From Alphaproteobacteria bacterium (GTDB lineage: Bacteria > Pseudomonadota > Alphaproteobacteria > DATDPM01): 64,000 nucleotides of DNA. Both the position numbers and the translations under genes were made by a program. Location of the stretch: the NCBI GenBank assembly GCA_036475545.1, contig JAZGAE010000155.1:2291-66290 (forward strand), in the 5' to 3' direction. Positions 254 to 53,254 of the stretch are shown here, piece after piece (position 1 is the first letter of the stretch; each line of letters begins with the position of its first letter). Below the pieces are notes generated by a model. It searched no databases. It worked only from the letters and a program-made list of their open reading frames with translations, and was not told where the DNA came from.

Positions 254-1531
254 TTGAAGACGGGGTTCGCGCGCAGGGAGTTCCTGATGGCCATCGGCGC
301 CGCGGGGGCGGCGGTCTCGCTCAAGGGCTGCGCGCGGGCCGCGAAGCCGCGGGTGGTGGTGGTCGGCGGCGGATTCGGGGGCGCGAGCTGCGCCAAGTAC
401 ATCAACCGGATCGATCCCGGCATCGACGTGGTCGTGGTGGAGCGAAACCGCGAGTACGTGACCTGCCCCTTCAGCAACAACGTCATCGGCGGCCTGCGTA
501 CGCTCGGGTCCCTCACCCACGGCTACGAGGGGCTGGGCGCGCGCGACGGGATCACGGTGGTGATCGACACCGCCACCGCCGTCGACGCGCAAGCGCGCAC
601 GGTGAGCCTCGCCGGCGGCAACCGGCTCGCTTATGACCGGCTCGTGCTGTCGCCCGGCATCGCCATTCGCTGGGGCGCCCTCGATGGCTATGACGAGGCC
701 GCGGCCGAGGCCATGCCGCATGCGTGGAAGGCGGGCCCGCAGACCCTGCTGCTGAAGCGCCAGCTCGCGGCGATGGAGGACGGCGGCACCGTGGTCATCG
801 CGGCGCCCGAGTATCCCTACCGCTGTCCGCCGGCGCCCTACGAGCGCGCCTCGATGGTCGCGCACTACTTGAAGACGAACGGCAAGGCGAGATCCAAGAT
901 CGTCATCCTCGACGCCAAGGACACGATTCCCAAACAGGCGCTCTTCGAGCAGGGCTGGGGCCGGTTCTACGAGGGCATGATCGAATGGGTCCCGCGCGGG
1001 CAGGGCGGCACCGCCACCAGGGTCGATCCGGCGACGAAGACGGTCTACGCCGAGGCCGGAGAATTCAAGGCCGACGTCGCCTGCATCGTGCCGCCGCAGT
1101 CGGCCGGCGGCATCGCGATCTCGGCCGGCGCGGCGGACGAGGACGGCTGGTGCCCGATCGATCCCTGGACCTTGGAGTCCACGCTGCGGCCGGGCGTCCA
1201 CGTACTCGGCGATTCCTGCATCGCCGGCGCCATGCCCAAGTCGGGCTTCTCCGCCAACAGCCAGGCCAAGGTCTGCGCGGCGGCGATCGTGGCCTTGCTC
1301 AACGACAGCCAACCCCCCGAGCCCGTCTTCATGAACACCTGTTATTCCACCATCGCGCCGGACTACGGGATCTCGATCTATGGGGCATACCGGGCCACCG
1401 AGCACGCCATCGTCGCGGTCTTGGGAAGCGTGAGCCTGAGCCCGCTGGACGCTCCCGACGAGGTCCGGAAGGCCGAGTTCGAGTATGCCCAAGGCTGGCT
1501 CGCCAGCATGACCGGCGAGATGTTCGGGTAA
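254..1531 (+). CDS. fccB: flavocytochrome c sulfide dehydrogenase flavoprotein subunit (FccB/SoxF-like), Tat-exported
   Basis: 425 aa. Twin-arginine signal (RREFLMAIGAAGAAV). FAD fold (VVVVGGGFGGAS). Long blocks of similarity to Allochromatium FccB recalled from memory (HAWKAG, RCPPAPYERAS, GWCP, MPKSGFSANSQ). Confidence 0.75.
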   Translation: MKTGFARREFLMAIGAAGAAVSLKGCARAAKPRVVVVGGGFGGASCAKYINRIDPGIDVVVVERNREYVTCPFSNNVIGGLRTLGSLTHGYEGLGARDGITVVIDTATAVDAQARTVSLAGGNRLAYDRLVLSPGIAIRWGALDGYDEAAAEAMPHAWKAGPQTLLLKRQLAAMEDGGTVVIAAPEYPYRCPPAPYERASMVAHYLKTNGKARSKIVILDAKDTIPKQALFEQGWGRFYEGMIEWVPRGQGGTATRVDPATKTVYAEAGEFKADVACIVPPQSAGGIAISAGAADEDGWCPIDPWTLESTLRPGVHVLGDSCIAGAMPKSGFSANSQAKVCAAAIVALLNDSQPPEPVFMNTCYSTIAPDYGISIYGAYRATEHAIVAVLGSVSLSPLDAPDEVRKAEFEYAQGWLASMTGEMFG

Positions 1532-13888: not shown

Positions 13889-14472
13889 TATGACTCGGCT
13901 CCTTCCGGTTCTTCCTGCTCGGTTGTGGCTTTGCCGACTTTTGTCTCTTCCGGTGTCTCTTTCGAGGGACCCGCTCCTTCCTTCTCTTCAACAGCGGTCC
14001 GCTTGCTCTTGTCGGTCGCTTCGCCGCGCTCCTCCTTGCTCTCGCGCCGTTCACGCTCTTCGCGGCCGTCGCGCCGTCCGCGTTCGTCGCGGCCATCGCG
14101 CCGTCCCCGTTCGTCGCGGCCGTCGCGCCGTCCCCGTTCGTCGCGGGACGCGCGGGACTGCATTACAACGGACGGACCGGTCTCGAGCTCGTCCACCCTG
14201 AGGGTGAGAAACCGCAGCACGTCCTCGTTGATCCGCATCTGGCGCTCCATCTCCTGGACCGCCGACCACGGAGCGTCGATGTTGAACAGGACGTAATGTC
14301 CCTTGCGGTTCTTCTTGATCCTGTAGGCGAGGCTCCTGAGCCCCCAGTGTTCCTTCTTGGTCACCTCGCCGCCGTTCTCCTTGACTACGGAGGCGAAGCG
14401 CTCCGCGAGGCCCTCGACCGCCGATGCCGAGATGTCCTGGCGCGCGATGAATACGTTTTCGTAATAAGCCAA
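13888..14472 (-). CDS. rpsF: 30S ribosomal protein S6 with a repetitive charged C-terminal tail
   Basis: N-terminus [13 protein letters not shown]. The TAA stop overlaps the rpsR ATG (TAATG). The C-terminus carries RDERGRRDG x3, encoded by a 27-nt tandem repeat. Confidence 0.9.
14054..14158 (-). repeat. In-frame 27-nt tandem repeat (about 3.9 copies) inside rpsF
   Basis: Units of cgttcgtcgcggcc(g/a)tcgcgccgtccc repeat head-to-tail from 14054 to 14158 and encode the RDERGRRDG repeats. Confidence 0.8.
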
Positions 14473-22653: not shown

Positions 22654-23550
22654 CTAGCCGGCGCCGCCGCCGGCGCTCTCCCGAGCGATCCCGGGCAGGG
22701 CGCGCGCGAGCGCGCAGAATTCCTGAACGGTAAGCTCCTCCGCCCGCGCCGTAGGGTCGAGGCCGACGGCGTCGATCAGCGCGGCGGCGTCGAGCCCGAG
22801 AGACTTCAGGCTCGTGCGCAGCATCTTGCGCCGCTGGCCGAATCCGGCCGCCACGACCCGCTCCAGCGCGCCGCGGTCGGCCTCCGCCAGCGGCCGCGGC
22901 CGGGGGATGAGCTGCACCACCGTGGAGGTGACCTTGGGCGGCGGCGTGAATGCGCTCGGCCGGACGTCGAACAGCGCGCGGGCCTCGCACAGCCACTGGA
23001 CCATCACCGACAGCCGGCCGTAGGCCTTGGTCCGCGGCACCGCGGTGATGCGGGCCGCCACCTCCTTCTGGAACATCAGCGTGAGCGACTCGAAGGCGGG
23101 CAGGTCACCGAGCCAGCGCAGGAGCAGGGGCACCGCGATGTTGTAGGGCAGATTGGCGACGATCTTGGCCGGACCTTGCGCCTCGCGCGCCAGCGCCGCG
23201 GCGTCGACCTCGAGGGCATCGGCGGCGACGATCTCGAGCCGCCCGGGGAAGGCGCGCATGAGGCTTTGGAGCGCCGCCACGCACCGCTCATCGCGTTCGA
23301 TGGCGATGACGCGGCGCGCGCCCTCGAGCAGCAGCGCGCGCGTCAGCCCCCCGGGCCCGGGCCCGACCTCGATCACCGTGACCTGGCGCAAGTCCCCCGC
23401 CGCGCGGGCGACGCGGCGGGTGAGGTTCATATCGAGCAGGAAGTGCTGGCCCAGCGCCCGCCGGGCGGTGATCCCGTGCGCGGCGATGACCTCGCGGAGC
23501 GGCGGAAGCTCGGGTCGCTCCGGGGCCACCCTAGTCCCCTCTGTCATCAT
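22654..23550 (-). CDS. rsmA: 16S rRNA (adenine1518-N6/adenine1519-N6)-dimethyltransferase RsmA/KsgA
   Basis: 298 aa from an ATGATG at 23545-23550. Motifs GQHFL, VIEVGPGPGGLT and NLPYNI. Conserved surA-pdxA-rsmA order. Confidence 0.9.
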   Translation of the reverse strand: MMTEGTRVAPERPELPPLREVIAAHGITARRALGQHFLLDMNLTRRVARAAGDLRQVTVIEVGPGPGGLTRALLLEGARRVIAIERDERCVAALQSLMRAFPGRLEIVAADALEVDAAALAREAQGPAKIVANLPYNIAVPLLLRWLGDLPAFESLTLMFQKEVAARITAVPRTKAYGRLSVMVQWLCEARALFDVRPSAFTPPPKVTSTVVQLIPRPRPLAEADRGALERVVAAGFGQRRKMLRTSLKSLGLDAAALIDAVGLDPTARAEELTVQEFCALARALPGIARESAGGGAG

Positions 23551-23580
23551 AGGACGGCACGTGTGATGGCCTTGGGTGAT

Positions 23581-23622
23581 CCTCCGGCGCAGTCCGTTCA
23601 ACTTGACCGGATTATGCTCTAG
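23581..23622. repeat. Copy 1 of a 42-nt dispersed repeat (cctccggcgcagtccgttcaacYtgaccggattatgctctaR); on the minus strand it begins at the pdxA TAG stop
   Basis: It matches 38944-38985 at 41 of 42 positions. It lies between pdxA and rsmA, about 30 nt upstream of the rsmA ATG. Confidence 0.8.
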
Positions 23623-36564: not shown

Positions 36565-38325
36565 ATGAAGATCCTCTCCTGCCATGCCGGTTACCACGAC
36601 TCGGCCGCCGCGGTCTTCGACGAATACCGTCTGTTGGCCGCGGTTCAGCAGGAGAGGCTGACCCGCAAGAAAAGCGATGGCAACGGCGTCCCCTTCGCGT
36701 GCATCGACGAGTGCCTGGCGATCACCGGGATATCGCGGCAAGACATCGACGTGGTGGTGGTGACCCGCGGGGCTCTGCCCTGGCGCTACTACACTCACTT
36801 CGCGGGAGGCCGGTTCGTCGAGGGCAAGGTGCGGCAGTGGCTGGGCAAGGAGAAGCTCAAGAGCATGGCTCTCGAGCTGCGGCGTTCCGGCGGCACCCAG
36901 GCAGAGGGGATCTTCAATGGCCGGGGCTTCCTCGTCGATCTCGGGTTTGGCGCCGACGTCAAGCTCGGGTTTTGCAACCACCATATGTCCCATGCCTTGC
37001 CGGCCCTGTTCTACACGGATTGGGATGACGCGCTGTTGGTCACTTCGGACGGGGGCGGCGACAACGTTCAGTACAGCCACCGTGTGTTCCGCGATGGGAG
37101 GATCGAGACCCTCTACGGCGGCGACGAGTACCTGCTGGCGCCGACGCGGATAGACAGCCTTGGCCTCGCCTATGGTTACGCGACGCAGGCGCTGGGCTAC
37201 CGAATCAACCGTCACGAGGGAAAGCTCACCGGGCTCTCGGCCTATGGGAGCCCGGCGCTTTTCGATGACCTCGCCCCGCATTTCACGTTGCACCGGAACG
37301 GCCAGATCGAGAGCGACTTCGAGAGCTACCCGGCGATGCGCCGATTCATCTTCGAGCTGGCGGAAGGAGCGGCGCCGGAAGACGTGGCGGCCTCGATCCA
37401 GAAACTCCTGGAAGAATTCATGTTGGGCTCGGTGCGGCGCCTCCTCGAGCTGCACCCCGTCCGCCACCTGGGCCTCGCGGGCGGGGTGTTTGCGAATGTT
37501 AAACTCAACCGGCTCTTGGCCGAGCACACGGCCGCCGAGGAGGTATTCATATTTCCCGCCATGGGGGACGAGGGCCTCGCCGTGGGCGGCGCGCTTCAGT
37601 TCCTGTTGAAGCGCGACGGGCTGGAGCGGTGGCTGTCCGAGCGCCACCGGCTCGACGACGTTTATCTGGGCAGAGCCTACGACGACAGCATCGATGCGGT
37701 GCTCTGCGAATGTCCCGGGGTGGCCCGAGTCGCGGAGGAGCCCGTGAAAGAGAGCGTGGCGCTACTTGCCTCGGGGCGGATCGGAGCGATTTACACCGGG
37801 CGCATGGAATTCGGGCCGAGGGCGCTGGGCGCCCGGAGCATCCTCGCCAGCCCGCTCGACAGGACGATCAACGCAACCTTGAACGCCCGGCTCGGGCGCA
37901 CCGAGTTCATGCCTTTTGCGCCGGTGGTGGCCGAGGAGGACGCGGAGGCGGTGTTCGAGATCGGTCCGCTTAACCGTTACGCCGGGCGTTTCATGACCAT
38001 GACCTGCGCCGTGCGCGCAGCGTGGCGGGACAAGATCCCGGCGGTCATTCACGTCGACGGGACGGCCCGTCCGCAGATCGTCGCGCGCCACCAGAACCCG
38101 CTCTATTTCGATATCCTCGAGCTCTTCAAGGCGGCGACCGGCCTGCCGGTTCTGATCAACACCAGTTTCAACGTGCACGAGGAGCCGATCGTCAACCGGC
38201 CCGAGGAATGCTTGCAGGCGCTCGTCGATCGTCGTATCGACTTCGTTGTGACCTCGAGGGGGGTCTACGCGATGGCGGACGAGCCGCTTGATGGCCGCCG
38301 AATGGAACCGCCGGAGCACCCGTAG
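36565..38325 (+). CDS. carbamoyltransferase, NodU/CmcH/TobZ family
   Basis: 586 aa. N-terminal ASKHA-like domain (MKILSCHAGYHDSAAAV...QQERLTRKKSD). HHMSHA motif. C-terminal YrdC-like carbamoyltransferase domain. Confidence 0.8.
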   Translation: MKILSCHAGYHDSAAAVFDEYRLLAAVQQERLTRKKSDGNGVPFACIDECLAITGISRQDIDVVVVTRGALPWRYYTHFAGGRFVEGKVRQWLGKEKLKSMALELRRSGGTQAEGIFNGRGFLVDLGFGADVKLGFCNHHMSHALPALFYTDWDDALLVTSDGGGDNVQYSHRVFRDGRIETLYGGDEYLLAPTRIDSLGLAYGYATQALGYRINRHEGKLTGLSAYGSPALFDDLAPHFTLHRNGQIESDFESYPAMRRFIFELAEGAAPEDVAASIQKLLEEFMLGSVRRLLELHPVRHLGLAGGVFANVKLNRLLAEHTAAEEVFIFPAMGDEGLAVGGALQFLLKRDGLERWLSERHRLDDVYLGRAYDDSIDAVLCECPGVARVAEEPVKESVALLASGRIGAIYTGRMEFGPRALGARSILASPLDRTINATLNARLGRTEFMPFAPVVAEEDAEAVFEIGPLNRYAGRFMTMTCAVRAAWRDKIPAVIHVDGTARPQIVARHQNPLYFDILELFKAATGLPVLINTSFNVHEEPIVNRPEECLQALVDRRIDFVVTSRGVYAMADEPLDGRRMEPPEHP

Positions 38326-38466
38326 GCACGTAGGCCCCGCCCACGATGTGGTTGCCTCGCCCGCCCGATCCGGATATTAAGGCCGCGATTCTCGCGGAGG
38401 CGCGTTTCAGGGGAATTCTCGGCCTCCACCGTTTCTCTCCTTAAGCGATTTAGGGTCTTTGTCGTC

Positions 38467-38889
38467 ATGGCCGTCGAACGAACGCTTTCAATCCTCAAGC
38501 CCGACGTCACGCGCCGCAATCTCACCGGCGAGGTCAACGCGCGTCTGGAGCGGGCAGGCTTGCGCATCGTGGCGCAGAAGCGCATGTGTCTAACCCGCGA
38601 GCAGGCGGAAAAGTTCTACGCCGTGCACGCCAGCCGCTCTTTCTTCAAGGACCTGTGCGAGTTCATGATTTCCGGCCCGGTGGTGGTCCAGGTCCTCGAA
38701 GCCGAGAACGCGATCGCGCTCAACCGCGACGTCATGGGCGCCACCAATCCGGCTAATGCCGCGGAGGGGACGATCCGCAAGGACTTCGGCGAGTCGGTCG
38801 AAGCGAACTCGGTCCACGGATCGGATTCGCCCGAGACCGCTGGATGGGAGGTCGCTTTCTTCTTCGCCGAAATGGAGATCGTCGGCTGA
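38467..38889 (+). CDS. ndk: nucleoside-diphosphate kinase
   Basis: 140 aa. Motifs [10 protein letters not shown] and NSVHGSDS (active-site His). Confidence 0.95.
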
Positions 38890-38943
38890 GCTCTCGCTCC
38901 GGACCGGCGCTTCGCGCCCCGCTCCGGCCCGCGGCACAAAATT

Positions 38944-38985
38944 CCTCCGGCGCAGTCCGTTCAACCTGACCGGATTATGCTCTAA
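38944..38985. repeat. Copy 2 of the 42-nt dispersed repeat; on the minus strand it begins at the TAG stop of the 40-aa CoxIV-like gene
   Basis: 41 of 42 positions identical to 23581-23622. Confidence 0.8.
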
Positions 38986-39104
38986 GTGAGGAAGAGGGCC
39001 ATCAGCGCCAGAATCGCGGCGATACCAGCGGTGCTGATGTTGAGCAGTCTGATGAAGCCTTTCCAGTCATGCTGGTGCCGCTGCAATTCGCTGTCCACGG
39101 ACAT
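38982..39104 (-). CDS. small membrane protein resembling aa3-type cytochrome oxidase subunit IV (COX4_pro_2-like), 40 aa; absent from the ORF track
   Basis: The start is an ATG at 39102-39104 preceded by AAGGGGGAAG, and the stop is a TAG at 38982-38984. The translation is MSVDSELQRHQHDWKGFIRLLNISTAGIAAILALMALFLT. This has a His-rich N-terminus, a KGF(I/V)RL motif and a single TM helix ending in LMA(L/I)FLT, matching my recollection of alphaproteobacterial CoxIV peptides. Confidence 0.45.
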   Translation of the reverse strand: MSVDSELQRHQHDWKGFIRLLNISTAGIAAILALMALFLT

Positions 39105-39245
39105 CACTTCCCCCTTTTTCGTTGTTCGAGCAAGAACCGGCCTCCCACCATTGGCCTCGACGTATAGCCCAGAGAGACTCCTCGGTGGAAGGGGTTAACC
39201 GCGTCTCGGCCTTCGCGGTCCGGCGTCGAGGTTGCGAGGCGGCGC

Positions 39246-39905
39246 CTATAGCTGTTCCTCGGCCGGATTGATGAGAACCCCTTCGGGGACGTCCGCGCCG
39301 TCCACCAACACCACCTCGCCCGTGACCCGCACCCGGTCCTCCGCGATAAGGCGCACCGCCAGCGGATAGATACGGTGCTCGGCGGCAAGTACGCGGTCGG
39401 CCAACGTGTTGACCGTATCGCCCGGGCGGACCGGGACGGCGGCCTGGATGATGACGGGGCCCGAATCCATGTCCGGGCGAACGAAGTGAACCGTGCAGCC
39501 GGTGAAGCGCACCCCCGATTCAAGGACCCGCTGGTGGGTGTTGAGGCCCTTGAAGGCCGGCAGCAACGACGGGTGAATGTTGATCACCCGGTCCCGCCAC
39601 TTGGCGATGAAATCCTCGTCCAAGAGCCGCATGAATCCCGCTAGGCAGATGAGCCTCACCCCGCTTGCCGAGAGCACCCGGTCGAGGGCGGCGTCGAACT
39701 CGTTGCGGTTCGGGAAGTCGCGATGGTTGATGGCCGTGGTCGGGAGTCCGGCGGCCTCGGCGCGGGCGAGCCCCCGCGCCTTCGGTTCGTTGGAGAGCAC
39801 GATGGCGATCTCCGCCGGGAAGTCGGGGCGGGCGCAGGCGTCGATGATGGCTTGCAGATTGGTGCCCCGCCCCGAGATGAGGACCGCGATCTTCACCCCT
39901 GCCAT
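39246..39905 (-). CDS. purN: phosphoribosylglycinamide formyltransferase
   Basis: Begins [17 protein letters not shown] at the ATG at 39905. Motifs NIHPSLLP and active-site [11 protein letters not shown]. Confidence 0.9.
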
Positions 39906-49469: not shown

Positions 49470-50912
49470 ATGTCGGCACGGGTTCTGGTTGTTGACGACG
49501 TTCCGGCGAACGTCAAGCTGCTGGAAGCGAAGCTGACGGCCGAATATTTCGACGTCATAACGGCCCCCGACGGCCCGTCCGCACTGGCAGCCGCCGAGAG
49601 CGAGTTGCCCGACATCATATTGCTCGACGTGATGATGCCCGAGATGGACGGCTTCGAGGTCTGCCGGCGCCTGCGGGAAAACCCCCGGACCGCGCACATT
49701 CCCGTCGTCATGGTCACGGCGCTCAGCGAGGTTTCCGACCGCGTCCAGGGGCTCGAGGCGGGGGCCGACGATTTCCTCACCAAGCCGGTCAACAACATGG
49801 CGTTGTTTGCCCGCATCAAATCCCTGGTGCGGTTGAAGATGACCATGGACGAATGGCGCCGGCGCGAGGAGACGTGCGACCGGTTCGGCGTTCTTTCCGA
49901 CGGACGCCTGCCGGCCCGGGAAGACGCTTCGGAGGCCCGTGTGCTCGTGGTGGAGACTGGCGAGTCGCGCGGCGATTGGATCGCCAAGGCCTTGGCGCAG
50001 GACGGGGACGAACTCACGACCGCCCCGGGGGCCGAGGCCGGAATCGAGTTGGCGCGAGACGGGGCTTTCGATCTCATCATCACCGATGCGACCGCTTCGG
50101 GCGAGGCGGACGGCGATCCGCTGCGCCTTTGCTCGTCGCTCCGTTCGATGGAGGAATGCCGATCGGTTCCCATCCTCATCATGGTGGAGGCGAACGAGGT
50201 GGAACGCCTGGCCAAGGGGCTGGACCTGGGCGTCAACGATTACATCGTGAAGCCGATGGATCCCCACGAATTATTGGCGCGGGTGCGCACCCAGGTTCGC
50301 GGCAAGCGCTACCAGGATCGGCTTCGCGCCAATTTCGAGCGCAGCCTGTCAATGGCGCTCACCGATAACCTGACCGGCCTCTACAACCGGCGCTACATGG
50401 ACGTCCATCTCGGCACCATGATGCAACGCATGGTCGAAGAGGGCCGGCCCTTGGGCCTGCTCATGATCGATATCGATTTCTTCAAGTCCGTGAACGACCG
50501 ATACGGCCACGGGGTGGGCGACGAGGTCTTGTTCCAGATGGCGAAACGCATCTGCGGCTGCGTCCGCGGCTTCGACATGGTCGCTCGACACGGCGGCGAA
50601 GAGTTCGTCGTCGTGCTCCCCGGAGCGCCCCCCGAGGTTATCCACGGAGTCGCCGAACGTCTTCGGCACGCCATCGCCGAGGAGCCATTCCCTGTTTCCG
50701 ACGCCGTCGGAAAGATCGAGGTCTCGGTCAGCGTCGGCGCCGCCATGGTGGAAGGCCCCGGCGACGCGCCCAAGTCGCTCCTCAAGCGGGCCGACATGGC
50801 GATGTATCAGGCCAAGCGCCAAGGCCGCAATCGTGTGATTGCCGACTTCGATTACGACGAAGACGTAACCTCTGAATCGGCCACGCCGCAGAAACTCTCG
50901 GCCGTTTCCTAA
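49470..50912 (+). CDS. pleD: response regulator / diguanylate cyclase PleD (REC-REC-GGDEF)
   Basis: Two receiver domains followed by a GGDEF domain with a GGEEF active site (RHGGEEFVV) and an I-site RxxD. Confidence 0.85.
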   Translation: MSARVLVVDDVPANVKLLEAKLTAEYFDVITAPDGPSALAAAESELPDIILLDVMMPEMDGFEVCRRLRENPRTAHIPVVMVTALSEVSDRVQGLEAGADDFLTKPVNNMALFARIKSLVRLKMTMDEWRRREETCDRFGVLSDGRLPAREDASEARVLVVETGESRGDWIAKALAQDGDELTTAPGAEAGIELARDGAFDLIITDATASGEADGDPLRLCSSLRSMEECRSVPILIMVEANEVERLAKGLDLGVNDYIVKPMDPHELLARVRTQVRGKRYQDRLRANFERSLSMALTDNLTGLYNRRYMDVHLGTMMQRMVEEGRPLGLLMIDIDFFKSVNDRYGHGVGDEVLFQMAKRICGCVRGFDMVARHGGEEFVVVLPGAPPEVIHGVAERLRHAIAEEPFPVSDAVGKIEVSVSVGAAMVEGPGDAPKSLLKRADMAMYQAKRQGRNRVIADFDYDEDVTSESATPQKLSAVS

Positions 50913-51217: not shown

Positions 51218-51330
51218 ACCCGCCGGAGGGGACCTGTCAACCCCGCCGGAGGGGACCTGTCAACCCCGCCGGAGAGGACCTGTCAACCCCGCCGGGGGGA
51301 ACCTGTCAACCACGGCGGGGATGGACGCCT
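51218..51330. repeat. Tandem array of about 4.5 copies of a 23-nt unit (ACCCCGCCGGAGGGGACCTGTCA) between ctpA and rpmG
   Basis: Copies at 51218-51239, 51240-51262, 51263-51285 and 51286-51308, plus a degenerate fifth. Each unit contains the near-palindrome CCCCGCCGGAGGGG. Confidence 0.85.
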
Positions 51331-51377
51331 GGCGCGGCCAGCGGAGCCTTCGCGCGCTCGCGGCCGGCCGCGCCGCC

Positions 51378-52988
51378 TCAACGTGTGGCCACGGCCGGGA
51401 AAGAGAGCTGCAAGGCGCGGGCGTAGAGTTCCGCGTCGCCAAGCAGCTTCCGCGTCACCTCCAGGTCGGCCTCCGGCATGCTGTGACGGGACGGGCAGAC
51501 CCGCCGCAGCTCCTCGCTCGTCTCCCGGTCGCGCCCCTGATCGCCGCGCGAGAGGGCGAGGGTGGATCCCGGCTCGGCCGCGCCGCGAAGCAGGTCGTCC
51601 ACCGCGCCGGGCGCCGAGGTCTGCGGGTTGCTGGTGCAGATCGTCGGTGCCACGCCCAGCTCGTGGAGCACCTGGCCGGAGGGCGCATGCATGCGAGACC
51701 AGGTCAAGATCAACTCCCCGTTGTTGGGGAGCCGGATGACGTTCTGCACCGTTCCCTTGCCGAACGAGGTGCTGCCGATCACCAACGCGCGGCCGTGGTC
51801 TTGAAGGGCCGCGGCGACGATCTCTGCGGCCGAGGCGGATTGCCCGTTGATGAGGACGGCCATCGGCAGACCGTTGGCAATATCATCGTCCGTGGCGTCG
51901 AATTCCTGGTTGCTGTCGGGATGGCGGCCGATGGTCGAAAGAATCCGCCCGCGGGAAAGGAAGAGGTCGGCGACGGCCACCGCCTGGTCGAGCAGGCCGC
52001 CAGGGTTGTCCCGCAAATCCAGGACCACTCCCGCGATCTCCGCCTCCTGCTTCAGCTGCGAGAACGCATCGGAGACTTGGGTGGTCGTGCGCTGATTGAA
52101 GCCGATGACGCGAAGGTATGCGAGGTCCCCTTCGAGGCGGGCCTCTACCGTAGTGGGGATGATGAGTTTGCGCGCGAGGGTTAGCTTCAGCGACCCTTCG
52201 AGGCCGGTGCGGGCGAGGGTGAGCTCCACGCGCGAGTCCACCCGCCCGCGCAGGCGCCGTGCGACCGCGCGGTGGTCGAGGCCGGCGACCGGGGCGCCGT
52301 CCACATGGGTAATCAGATCGTCGGCCTGGATGTCCGCCCGCGCCGCCGGCGAGTCCGGAAGGACTGCCGTGACTTGCACGCCATCCCCCGCCAACGCGAA
52401 GCGGATGCCGATCCCGCCGAACCCCTCGCGGGCGGCGCGCTGCTCGAGCGCCTCCTCGGCGCCGGTGTACCGCGAAAACCCGTCCAGCCGGGAGAGAGCC
52501 CCCTCGAACACCACCTGATAAAGCCTTTCCGTGGAGGCATATTCGAGGTGAGGAGAACCCGCCCGACCGGCATCCAAGGCTATCGCGGTGAGCTTCGCCC
52601 ACCCGGCCGCGTCCGCATCGTCGGGCGCGTCGAGCTTGGCGAGGACCCCGTCGGGGCCACGAAGCTCCACCAGGTCGCCGTTGCGCGCGACGGAGATCCC
52701 CGAATCCAGCGTAGACAGTCCCGAAAGTCCCTCGAACGCCACGGTTCCGATGTCAACGGGGTCGACGTAGCGCTCGGTGATGGATTGGTATCCCACCGCA
52801 AACACCCGCCCTACCTCGCCGGCCGGGAATGCGTCGCCGGACCGTTGGCCGGGCGTGGCGCAGGACACCAATGCGGCCGGGACCAGCAGGGCAAGGGAAA
52901 GCCGTTTGAGCGCGGCCACCGGCGCCCCAGTGGATCGGCGGAAACGGCCCCGGATCTTCGCGCCACGGGCTATCTGGGCCCCCATCAT
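51378..52988 (-). CDS. ctpA: S41 family C-terminal processing peptidase
   Basis: PDZ domain followed by an S41 domain (DLRDNPGG, GQSASAAEIVAAAL, FGKGTVQ). The likely start is the ATGATG at 52985-52988; the track extends to 53222. Confidence 0.75.
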   Translation of the reverse strand: MMGAQIARGAKIRGRFRRSTGAPVAALKRLSLALLVPAALVSCATPGQRSGDAFPAGEVGRVFAVGYQSITERYVDPVDIGTVAFEGLSGLSTLDSGISVARNGDLVELRGPDGVLAKLDAPDDADAAGWAKLTAIALDAGRAGSPHLEYASTERLYQVVFEGALSRLDGFSRYTGAEEALEQRAAREGFGGIGIRFALAGDGVQVTAVLPDSPAARADIQADDLITHVDGAPVAGLDHRAVARRLRGRVDSRVELTLARTGLEGSLKLTLARKLIIPTTVEARLEGDLAYLRVIGFNQRTTTQVSDAFSQLKQEAEIAGVVLDLRDNPGGLLDQAVAVADLFLSRGRILSTIGRHPDSNQEFDATDDDIANGLPMAVLINGQSASAAEIVAAALQDHGRALVIGSTSFGKGTVQNVIRLPNNGELILTWSRMHAPSGQVLHELGVAPTICTSNPQTSAPGAVDDLLRGAAEPGSTLALSRGDQGRDRETSEELRRVCPSRHSMPEADLEVTRKLLGDAELYARALQLSFPAVATR

Positions 52989-53254
52989 GGCTCGATCAAA
53001 CCACCGCTTCGTCGTGATTCCGCTGCGCGTGAGGGCCGCCACCCGTCCCCGCCTCATCCGGCCGGCGGCCCCGCAAACGCGGATCGTTGCATCCTTCACC
53101 CGAGGCATCAAGGCGCGCGTGATACTGGGCAACGCAAAGCGCTCCTTGGCGCCACGCCACGGCGGCGAAACGCGCTCTCTCGAAGGCAAGGAACCGTGTG
53201 AGTCATGGGTCGCTGGGAGCATCTCAGCTTCGCTGGGGCTGATTCTTGTAACCG

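Follow-up and report, generated by a model that had tools for sequence, protein, structure and literature searches.

Two copies of a 42-nt repeat on alphaproteobacterial stop codons: very probable remnants of an IS630-type MITE

The window, as we call the whole 64-kb stretch of DNA analysed here, holds two copies of a 42-nt repeat, each beginning exactly on the TAG stop codon of a gene. Both copies are very probably right-truncated remnants of a non-autonomous transposon (MITE) of the IS630/Tc1-mariner type, about 274 bp in length. The window has a G+C content of 67.8%, and its nearest named protein relatives come from metagenome-assembled genomes (MAGs) of uncultured Alphaproteobacteria, Rhodospirillales and Stellaceae.

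Results

Two copies of the repeat and the genes that they touch

An exact pattern search of the window found two plus-strand matches (Table 1), identical to each other at 41 of 42 positions, with a chance expectation of 0 in 100 shuffles. The initial annotation had treated the two loci as copies of one element, which the identity and the shuffles bear out; the element it described is there, but the coordinates it gave (38944-38985 and 23581-23622) are one base too high. Neither BLAST with short words nor a repeat finder detected a third copy in the 64-kb window, and the flanks of the two copies are unrelated outside the 42 nt. The plus strand reads TCCTCCGGCGCAGTCCGTTCAAC[C/T]TGACCGGATTATGCTCTA and the minus strand TAGAGCATAATCCGGTCA[G/A]GTTGAACGGACTGCGCCGGAGGA, with a right border of ...CCGGAGGA. 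At each copy the last three plus-strand bases are the stop codon, TAG, of a gene.

Table 1. Positions of the repeat copies, their parts and the neighbouring genes in the window
Feature	Coordinates	Strand	Remarks
Copy 2, 42-nt repeat	38943..38984	-	Exact match; aligned to the full L051 MITE
Copy 2, target TA	38983-38984	-	Duplicated target of the IS630-type MITE
Copy 2, left terminal inverted repeat GAGCATAATCCGGTCAGGT	38964-38982	-	Followed by subterminal MITE sequence
Copy 2, full MITE-homologous stretch	38915..38984	-	First 70 nt of the MITE, 67/70 identical to L051
Spacer remainder up to ndk stop	38890..38914	-	Holds most of the GC hairpin
Copy 1, 42-nt repeat	23580..23621	-	Left end of the MITE up to nt 42; agrees with L051 at 39/42 positions
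40-aa small membrane protein gene, COX4_pro_2-like	38982..39104	-	TAG formed by target TA and the element's first base, G
ndk	38467..38889	+	Convergent with the small gene; stop 38887-38889
pdxA, 350 aa	23619..24671	-	Ends in the TAG that opens copy 1
ksgA/rsmA (RrnaAD)	22654..23529	-	Downstream of copy 1, same strand

Copy 2 lies on the stop of the small gene, where CTA at 38982-38984 is the TAG of the minus-strand ORF. This ORF is also called as a gene in external assemblies and has been kept beside purN in L006-L010, L045, L046 and L049. Its 40-aa product passes the curated cut-off of Pfam PF07835 (COX4_pro_2), 22 bits, with a score of 26.8 bits; the initial annotation rightly placed the repeat on the stop of a CoxIV-like gene. 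Copy 1 sits in the 89-nt spacer between pdxA and ksgA in an lptD-surA-pdxA-ksgA cluster, on the CTA at 23619-23621 that ends pdxA (PF04166, E = 6e-102). The in-frame TAG that the initial annotation saw at the start of both copies therefore ends the small gene in the case of copy 2 and pdxA in the case of copy 1.

Two further gene features near the repeats were considered and rejected. The C-terminus of ndk, ...EIVG*, is kept in orthologues with or without the element, and because it is conserved in element-free orthologues neither the ndk stop nor its C-terminus is MITE-derived. The GGAGGA at the end of the 42-mer is not the ksgA Shine-Dalgarno sequence, being 50 nt away from the start codon annotated for that gene and part of the MITE interior.

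Other features of the window were seen in passing. A 586-aa carbamoyltransferase gene (36565-38325) between holC and ndk is absent from L045 and L046-L048, a difference in gene content at a locus that is syntenic in other respects. The spacer that separates ORF 49470..50912 (+) from the convergent ORF 51378..53222 (-) has, at 51219-51333, a 23-nt unit, CCCGCCGGAGGGGACCTGTCAAC, repeated in tandem about five times with 93-98% identity; the repeat length is not divisible by 3. A second tandem repeat at 14024-14158, with a 27-nt period and about five units that are 63-80% identical, may be a coding repeat of 9 aa.

The full-length element and the truncation of the window copies

Translated peptides of the element, concatenated as a protein query, matched two proteins, P0123 and P0124, the latter encoded on the metagenome contig L051 (JGI). 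Positions 1290-1565 of L051 hold a complete element, ggc-TA-GAGCATAATCCGGTCAGGT...ACCTGACCGGATTATGCTC-TA-ggcg, of about 274 bp including both TAs, with perfect terminal inverted repeats of 19-20 nt and inserted in CTAG. It is the one complete copy of the window's exact subfamily that we recovered. By blastn, identity to this MITE is 95.7% for copy 2 over nt 1-70 (E = 8e-27) and 92.9% for copy 1 over nt 1-42. L045, from a related organism whose PurN is 78% identical, carries a copy elsewhere, directly upstream of a 154-aa gene and with a different left flank; it matches the L051 MITE at 98.6% over nt 1-139, as far as the end of the contig. L045 and window copy 2 have in common both the 42 nt and the next 28 nt. 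After its 42-mer copy 2 continues into the tract ATTTTGTG, inside the 70-nt MITE-homologous stretch.

Beyond these points the likeness to the MITE stops. The 47 nt that follow copy 1, past nt 42, show no similarity to it (p = 0.96), and copy 2 past nt 70 gives a weak, ambiguous match to MITE positions ~170-185 (shuffle p = 0.008). The 25 nt between copy 2 and the ndk stop may be decayed or internally deleted MITE sequence or the original spacer. Within the window neither copy has a second terminal repeat at ≤1 mismatch, and each has its left TA and lacks a right-hand TA. The pair of terminal repeats that defines an IS630-derived MITE is thus present in L051 and absent from the window copies, which are fragments of a member of a MITE family, not intact members. 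Since both are without a right end, they are truncated fossils.

This bears on the initial annotation's view of a self-contained 42-nt element, which did not hold: of two truncated remnants of the ~274-bp MITE, the shorter one happens to measure 42 nt. We considered it very unlikely that the 42 nt are a complete tiny unit, a nano-MITE or a REP-like sequence with a degenerate right end, that spread as such. The window copies do have exactly 42 nt in common with sharp borders, the repeat holds an imperfect inverted repeat (TCCGGTCAG...CTGCGCCGGA), and the 36-bp palindromes of Nitrobacter described below are made of two terminal repeats of the same family. However, the match to the MITE runs on for another 28 nt in copy 2 and another 97 nt in L045, and because of these longer matches the 42-nt border exists at copy 1 alone. 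The right end of the supposed unit has neither TA nor a terminal GAGC, and no third copy with the border was present in the 347 kb of loci scanned. The apparently sharp-bordered repeat is the overlap of two independently truncated left ends, which does away with the question of how a 42-mer with a single end could have multiplied.

A terminal-repeat family shared with an IS630-family insertion sequence

The exact mid-element 24-mer CCGTTCAACNTGACCGGATTATGC had no match in the genome or metagenome contig collections, and BLAST of an 82-nt element region against plasmids gave chance matches alone. In L010, where the small protein is 69% identical, conservation is limited to the first 16 nt of the element, and for that reason we searched with the degenerate pattern TAGAGCATRATCCGRTYARGT. 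It matched 32 genome loci, all in Alphaproteobacteria (Nitrobacter, Bradyrhizobium, Virgifigura, Xanthobacteraceae, Stellaceae, Rhodospirillaceae and unclassified MAGs), against a chance expectation of about 4 calculated from the size of the collection and the degeneracy of the pattern. A narrower pattern for the subfamily, TAGAGCATAATCCGGTYARGT, matched one metagenome contig (L044). Among the 32 relatives, 22 have C before TA(G), which gives CTAG, 7 have T, 2 have A and 1 has G.

One alphaproteobacterial MAG (MFD00822.bin.1.152; L014, L027 and L043) has three copies of a 1.05-1.08-kb element headed by the motif, starting TA-GAGCATGATCCGGTTAGGTTGAAG and ending ...GGATCATGCTC-TA, identical inside and unrelated outside. 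Its protein, read across an A8 run, scores 218.5 bits against NCBIfam NF033545 'IS630 family transposase' (cut-off 100) and also matches Pfam DDE_3 and HTH_Tnp_IS630. As the element bounded by the motif encodes an IS630-family transposase, the motif is an IS630-family terminal inverted repeat together with the duplicated TA. The window's terminal repeat, GAGCATAATCCGGTCAGGTTGAAC, is identical to that of the insertion sequence in L014 and L027 at 22 of 24 positions. Within the insertion sequence the A8 run lies between the HTH and DDE parts and is a likely site of frameshifting or slippage; the L027 copy has a 23-nt internal deletion, and L043 has a copy with a truncated or rearranged far end.

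The same left terminal repeat heads non-coding elements of 132-189 bp in L016, L023, L028, L031, L034 and L037, which have a degenerate inverted copy of the repeat at the far end and are MITEs. TA flanks both ends in all of these except L031, which has no TA at its provisional right end, and likewise in the L051 MITE and the insertion-sequence copies of L014 and L027. These elements define an alphaproteobacterial family of IS630-type MITEs by the terminal repeat TA|GAGCAT(A/G)ATCCG(A/G)T(C/T)A(A/G)GT, a motif for which we found no paper giving a name. The mosaic repeats of Nitrobacter include a palindrome of 36 bp that is made of two adjoining, oppositely oriented terminal repeats.

Elements of this family also leave traces in assemblies and annotations. 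Draft contigs end inside the terminal repeat or the MITE in L017, L024, L026 (Nitrobacter winogradskyi), L044, L045 and L051, and from these repeated ends it follows that the family breaks short-read assemblies. Logan contigs also end in the element (L002-L004, L006-L010). We rejected these ends as a sign of high copy number, as a strain SNP bubble fits equally well; the breaks converge from both sides on one variable position, nt 27-29. Translations of the element, such as ...DRIML* and ...FNLTGLCS, occur in database 'hypothetical proteins'. In L051 the CTAG occupied by the MITE is close to the 3' end of a gene for a DDE_Tnp_1_4 transposase, and the ORF called there runs 25 aa into the MITE (...RPRLEHNPVRLNWLRRRNFVPRAGAGRSM). 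The family is thus a source both of assembly breaks and of spurious ORFs.

Stop codons as targets

The initial annotation had offered two explanations of the stop codons, that the element supplies them or that it inserts preferentially next to them. Orthologues of the small gene decide against the first, with an outcome of the kind that the initial annotation itself had named as refuting. The small gene ends ...GTT TAG TCTCCC in L045 and ...GTC TAG ACCG in L049, both without the element, with TAG at the same codon, and the protein there has 40 aa as in the window. These two loci are empty sites with a single TA for copy 2. In a more distant group the small protein is longer and ends with TGA. 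The stop of the small gene is older than the insertion, which merely regenerates it.

The suggestion that the genes were once longer and were shortened by the element draws on the fact that both end with the element's first three bases and that, on that strand, two of the element's three reading frames contain a stop (TAG at 1 and TAA at 8). Against it stand the 40-aa proteins of L045 and L049 with their element-free TAG, and the Pfam PdxA domain, which is complete before the tail of the protein; we regard its chances as negligible.

A third lineage appears to have been hit at the same place. After the same stop, L010 matches the right end of the MITE at 29 of 31 positions, as against 26 of 31 for the left end, which over these 31 nt suggests an independent insertion into the same TA in the opposite orientation. 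As element-free orthologues have the TAG and another lineage was apparently hit there too, the element targets the TA of the stop and is not the supplier of the stop. The same stop codon hit independently in different lineages would be a natural example of target-site reuse. In L049 (3413-3578) the small-gene TAG is followed by a different long palindrome (…CCCGCCCGGCCACCC…GGGTGGCCGGGCGGG…) with TAGA...CTAGA-like flanks, possibly a repeat element of a different, unrelated kind at this same stop.

The second explanation fared better. As the repeat starts with G after TA, the junction is always TAG on the outward-facing strand at each end, and as insertion is into TA dinucleotides, often within CTAG or TTAG, the element is often found exactly on TAG stops. 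In 11 of 33 relatives sampled in other genomes, the TAG at the junction terminates, in frame, a gene whose product has a Pfam domain (glutaredoxin, RHH_4, HutD, ABM, ABC/TOBE, EEP, SAICAR synthetase, F420 oxidoreductase, Fer4/CCG, CBS and Yip1), and these domains extend towards the C-terminus. TA targeting, a repeat that begins with G and these 11 junctions all support preferential insertion at or next to stops. A rough census of the window counted about 20 genes with TAG or TAA stops and about 218 TA dinucleotides outside long ORFs. Uniform use of TA would put ~8-18% of tolerated insertions on stops, for which 11/33 gives p of 3e-5 to 0.03; the null is rough, and with the chance rate set to values of 8-25% the binomial p varies between 3e-5 and 0.18. 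We regard the association with stop codons as real and as expected from TA/CTAG targeting together with selection against insertions that disrupt genes, with no special stop-seeking mechanism.

A 137-bp MITE of the family in L028 (~950-1086, minus strand) lies with TA/TA flanks between two convergent genes, and the TAG at each of its junctions ends one of those genes in frame. The stops must therefore have overlapped in one CTAG before the insertion.

Hairpins and a possible role after the stop

Between the element and the ndk stop there is a GC hairpin, ggcgcttcgcgcc. Its presence was correctly noted in the initial annotation; its position is 38906-38918 and not about 38909-38921. The element itself can fold into a hairpin of -13 kcal/mol, with z-scores of -1.75 to -2.8 that are unremarkable. 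We saw no evidence of a host function for the element. No Rfam family reached its gathering threshold across the window, with chance-level matches alone at E <= 10 around the element, and a consensus terminator scan of 38400-39400 found no terminators. Copy 1 has no U-run at all and does not qualify as a rho-independent terminator.

Some features could nevertheless be read as those of a selected cis-acting RNA signal after stops, such as a terminator, a 3'-end stabiliser or a site for an sRNA or protein, the transposon likeness then being secondary or a matter of domestication. The element's hairpin begins 10 nt past the stop on the transcribed strand, the single difference between the copies turns a G-U into an A-U pair and so preserves the pairing, the long form has UUUU 3 nt past the stem, and both remnants retain exactly the hairpin part. 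Yet the folding scores, the lack of a relevant Rfam match and the empty terminator scan speak against such a signal; copy 1 lies within an operon, where termination would be harmful; orthologues manage without the element; and the conserved part is the transposase-recognition repeat that it has in common with an insertion sequence. On balance we think a selected signal highly unlikely.

A related idea, that the left end of the MITE (stop-compatible TA-G junction, terminal repeat and hairpin, to which the long form adds UUUU) has been retained by the host after stops as a module of transcript 3' ends, has a slim chance of being correct. If true, it would explain why both remnants keep exactly that part, and why about a third of the family is on stops, sometimes those of two convergent genes (L028).

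Discussion

The picture that best fits these results is that of a MITE moved by a transposase encoded outside the window. Encoded at another place in the genome, or by another member of the community, an IS630-family transposase would have bound the terminal repeats of the MITE, excised it and pasted it into a TA, which was duplicated. The terminal repeat starts with G, and each junction would then read TA-G on its own strand, so that insertion at the TA of a TAG or TAA stop leaves the upstream protein intact. In a genome of 68% GC there would be few harmless TA sites, many of them stop codons. Surviving copies would concentrate on stops because of the target preference and of purifying selection where harmless TA sites are scarce. 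Later deletions probably took the right part, past nt 42 at pdxA and past about nt 70 at the small gene, leaving copies that would now be immobile. Present effects, such as a modest hairpin directly after a stop, would be incidental. We infer transposition into both window sites from homology, neither site having a complete footprint.

This behaviour is that of the IS630-family insertion sequences (IS630, ISY100), the bacterial branch of Tc1/mariner. Members of the family insert into TA and duplicate it (PMC2170065), and IS630 itself prefers CTAG according to Tenzen & Ohtsubo (1991) as cited in that paper. The family described here resembles them in the TA duplications that flank its intact members, in CTAG context and in cut-and-paste insertion into TA, and a ~1.05-kb NF033545-type member has almost the same terminal repeat. 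The window elements differ in being non-coding and in consisting of 42 and ~70 nt of one end, with no IS630-family transposase found by tblastn within the 64 kb.

There is a precedent for an IS630-mobilised MITE in RUP, the repeat unit of pneumococcus (PMC2229807). Like the elements here, RUP is short and non-coding, has IS630-like terminal repeats, inserts into TA and is dispersed through intergenic space (PMC2229807). The two have no sequence similarity, their hosts are a member of the Firmicutes and an alphaproteobacterium of 68% GC, and RUP has 107 bp, as against about 274 bp for the full element here. The window copies also differ from RUP in being truncated and in their prominent association with stop codons.

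Other short intergenic repeats are less close. The Nitrobacter and Bradyrhizobium loci contain TAGAGCATGATCCGATCAAGTTGAATCGGAyCATGCTCTAG, built from the same terminal repeat, in composite repeats that may be akin to the RIME-like mosaic intergenic repeats of Bradyrhizobiaceae/Rhizobiales. In those mosaic repeats the two terminal repeats stand back to back in 36 bp, whereas the element in the window represents a single end of a MITE of 274 bp. REP and BIME sequences have a conserved GTAG head and a Y1 (RAYT) transposase, and do not duplicate their target. The window repeat is like them in being short, imperfectly palindromic and just 3' of genes. It differs in its TA-GAGCAT head, in its DDE transposase partner of the IS630 type and in the TA duplications of its relatives, and the base before TAG in the window is C or T and never the G of a GTAG head.

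The window repeat is an ordinary mobile-element fossil and not a new device, and it does not open a new biological question. A repeat that seems to start with the stop codons of two unrelated genes is the expected signature of a TA-targeting transposon that begins with G in a GC-rich genome, and the result cautions against over-reading such repeats as regulatory devices.
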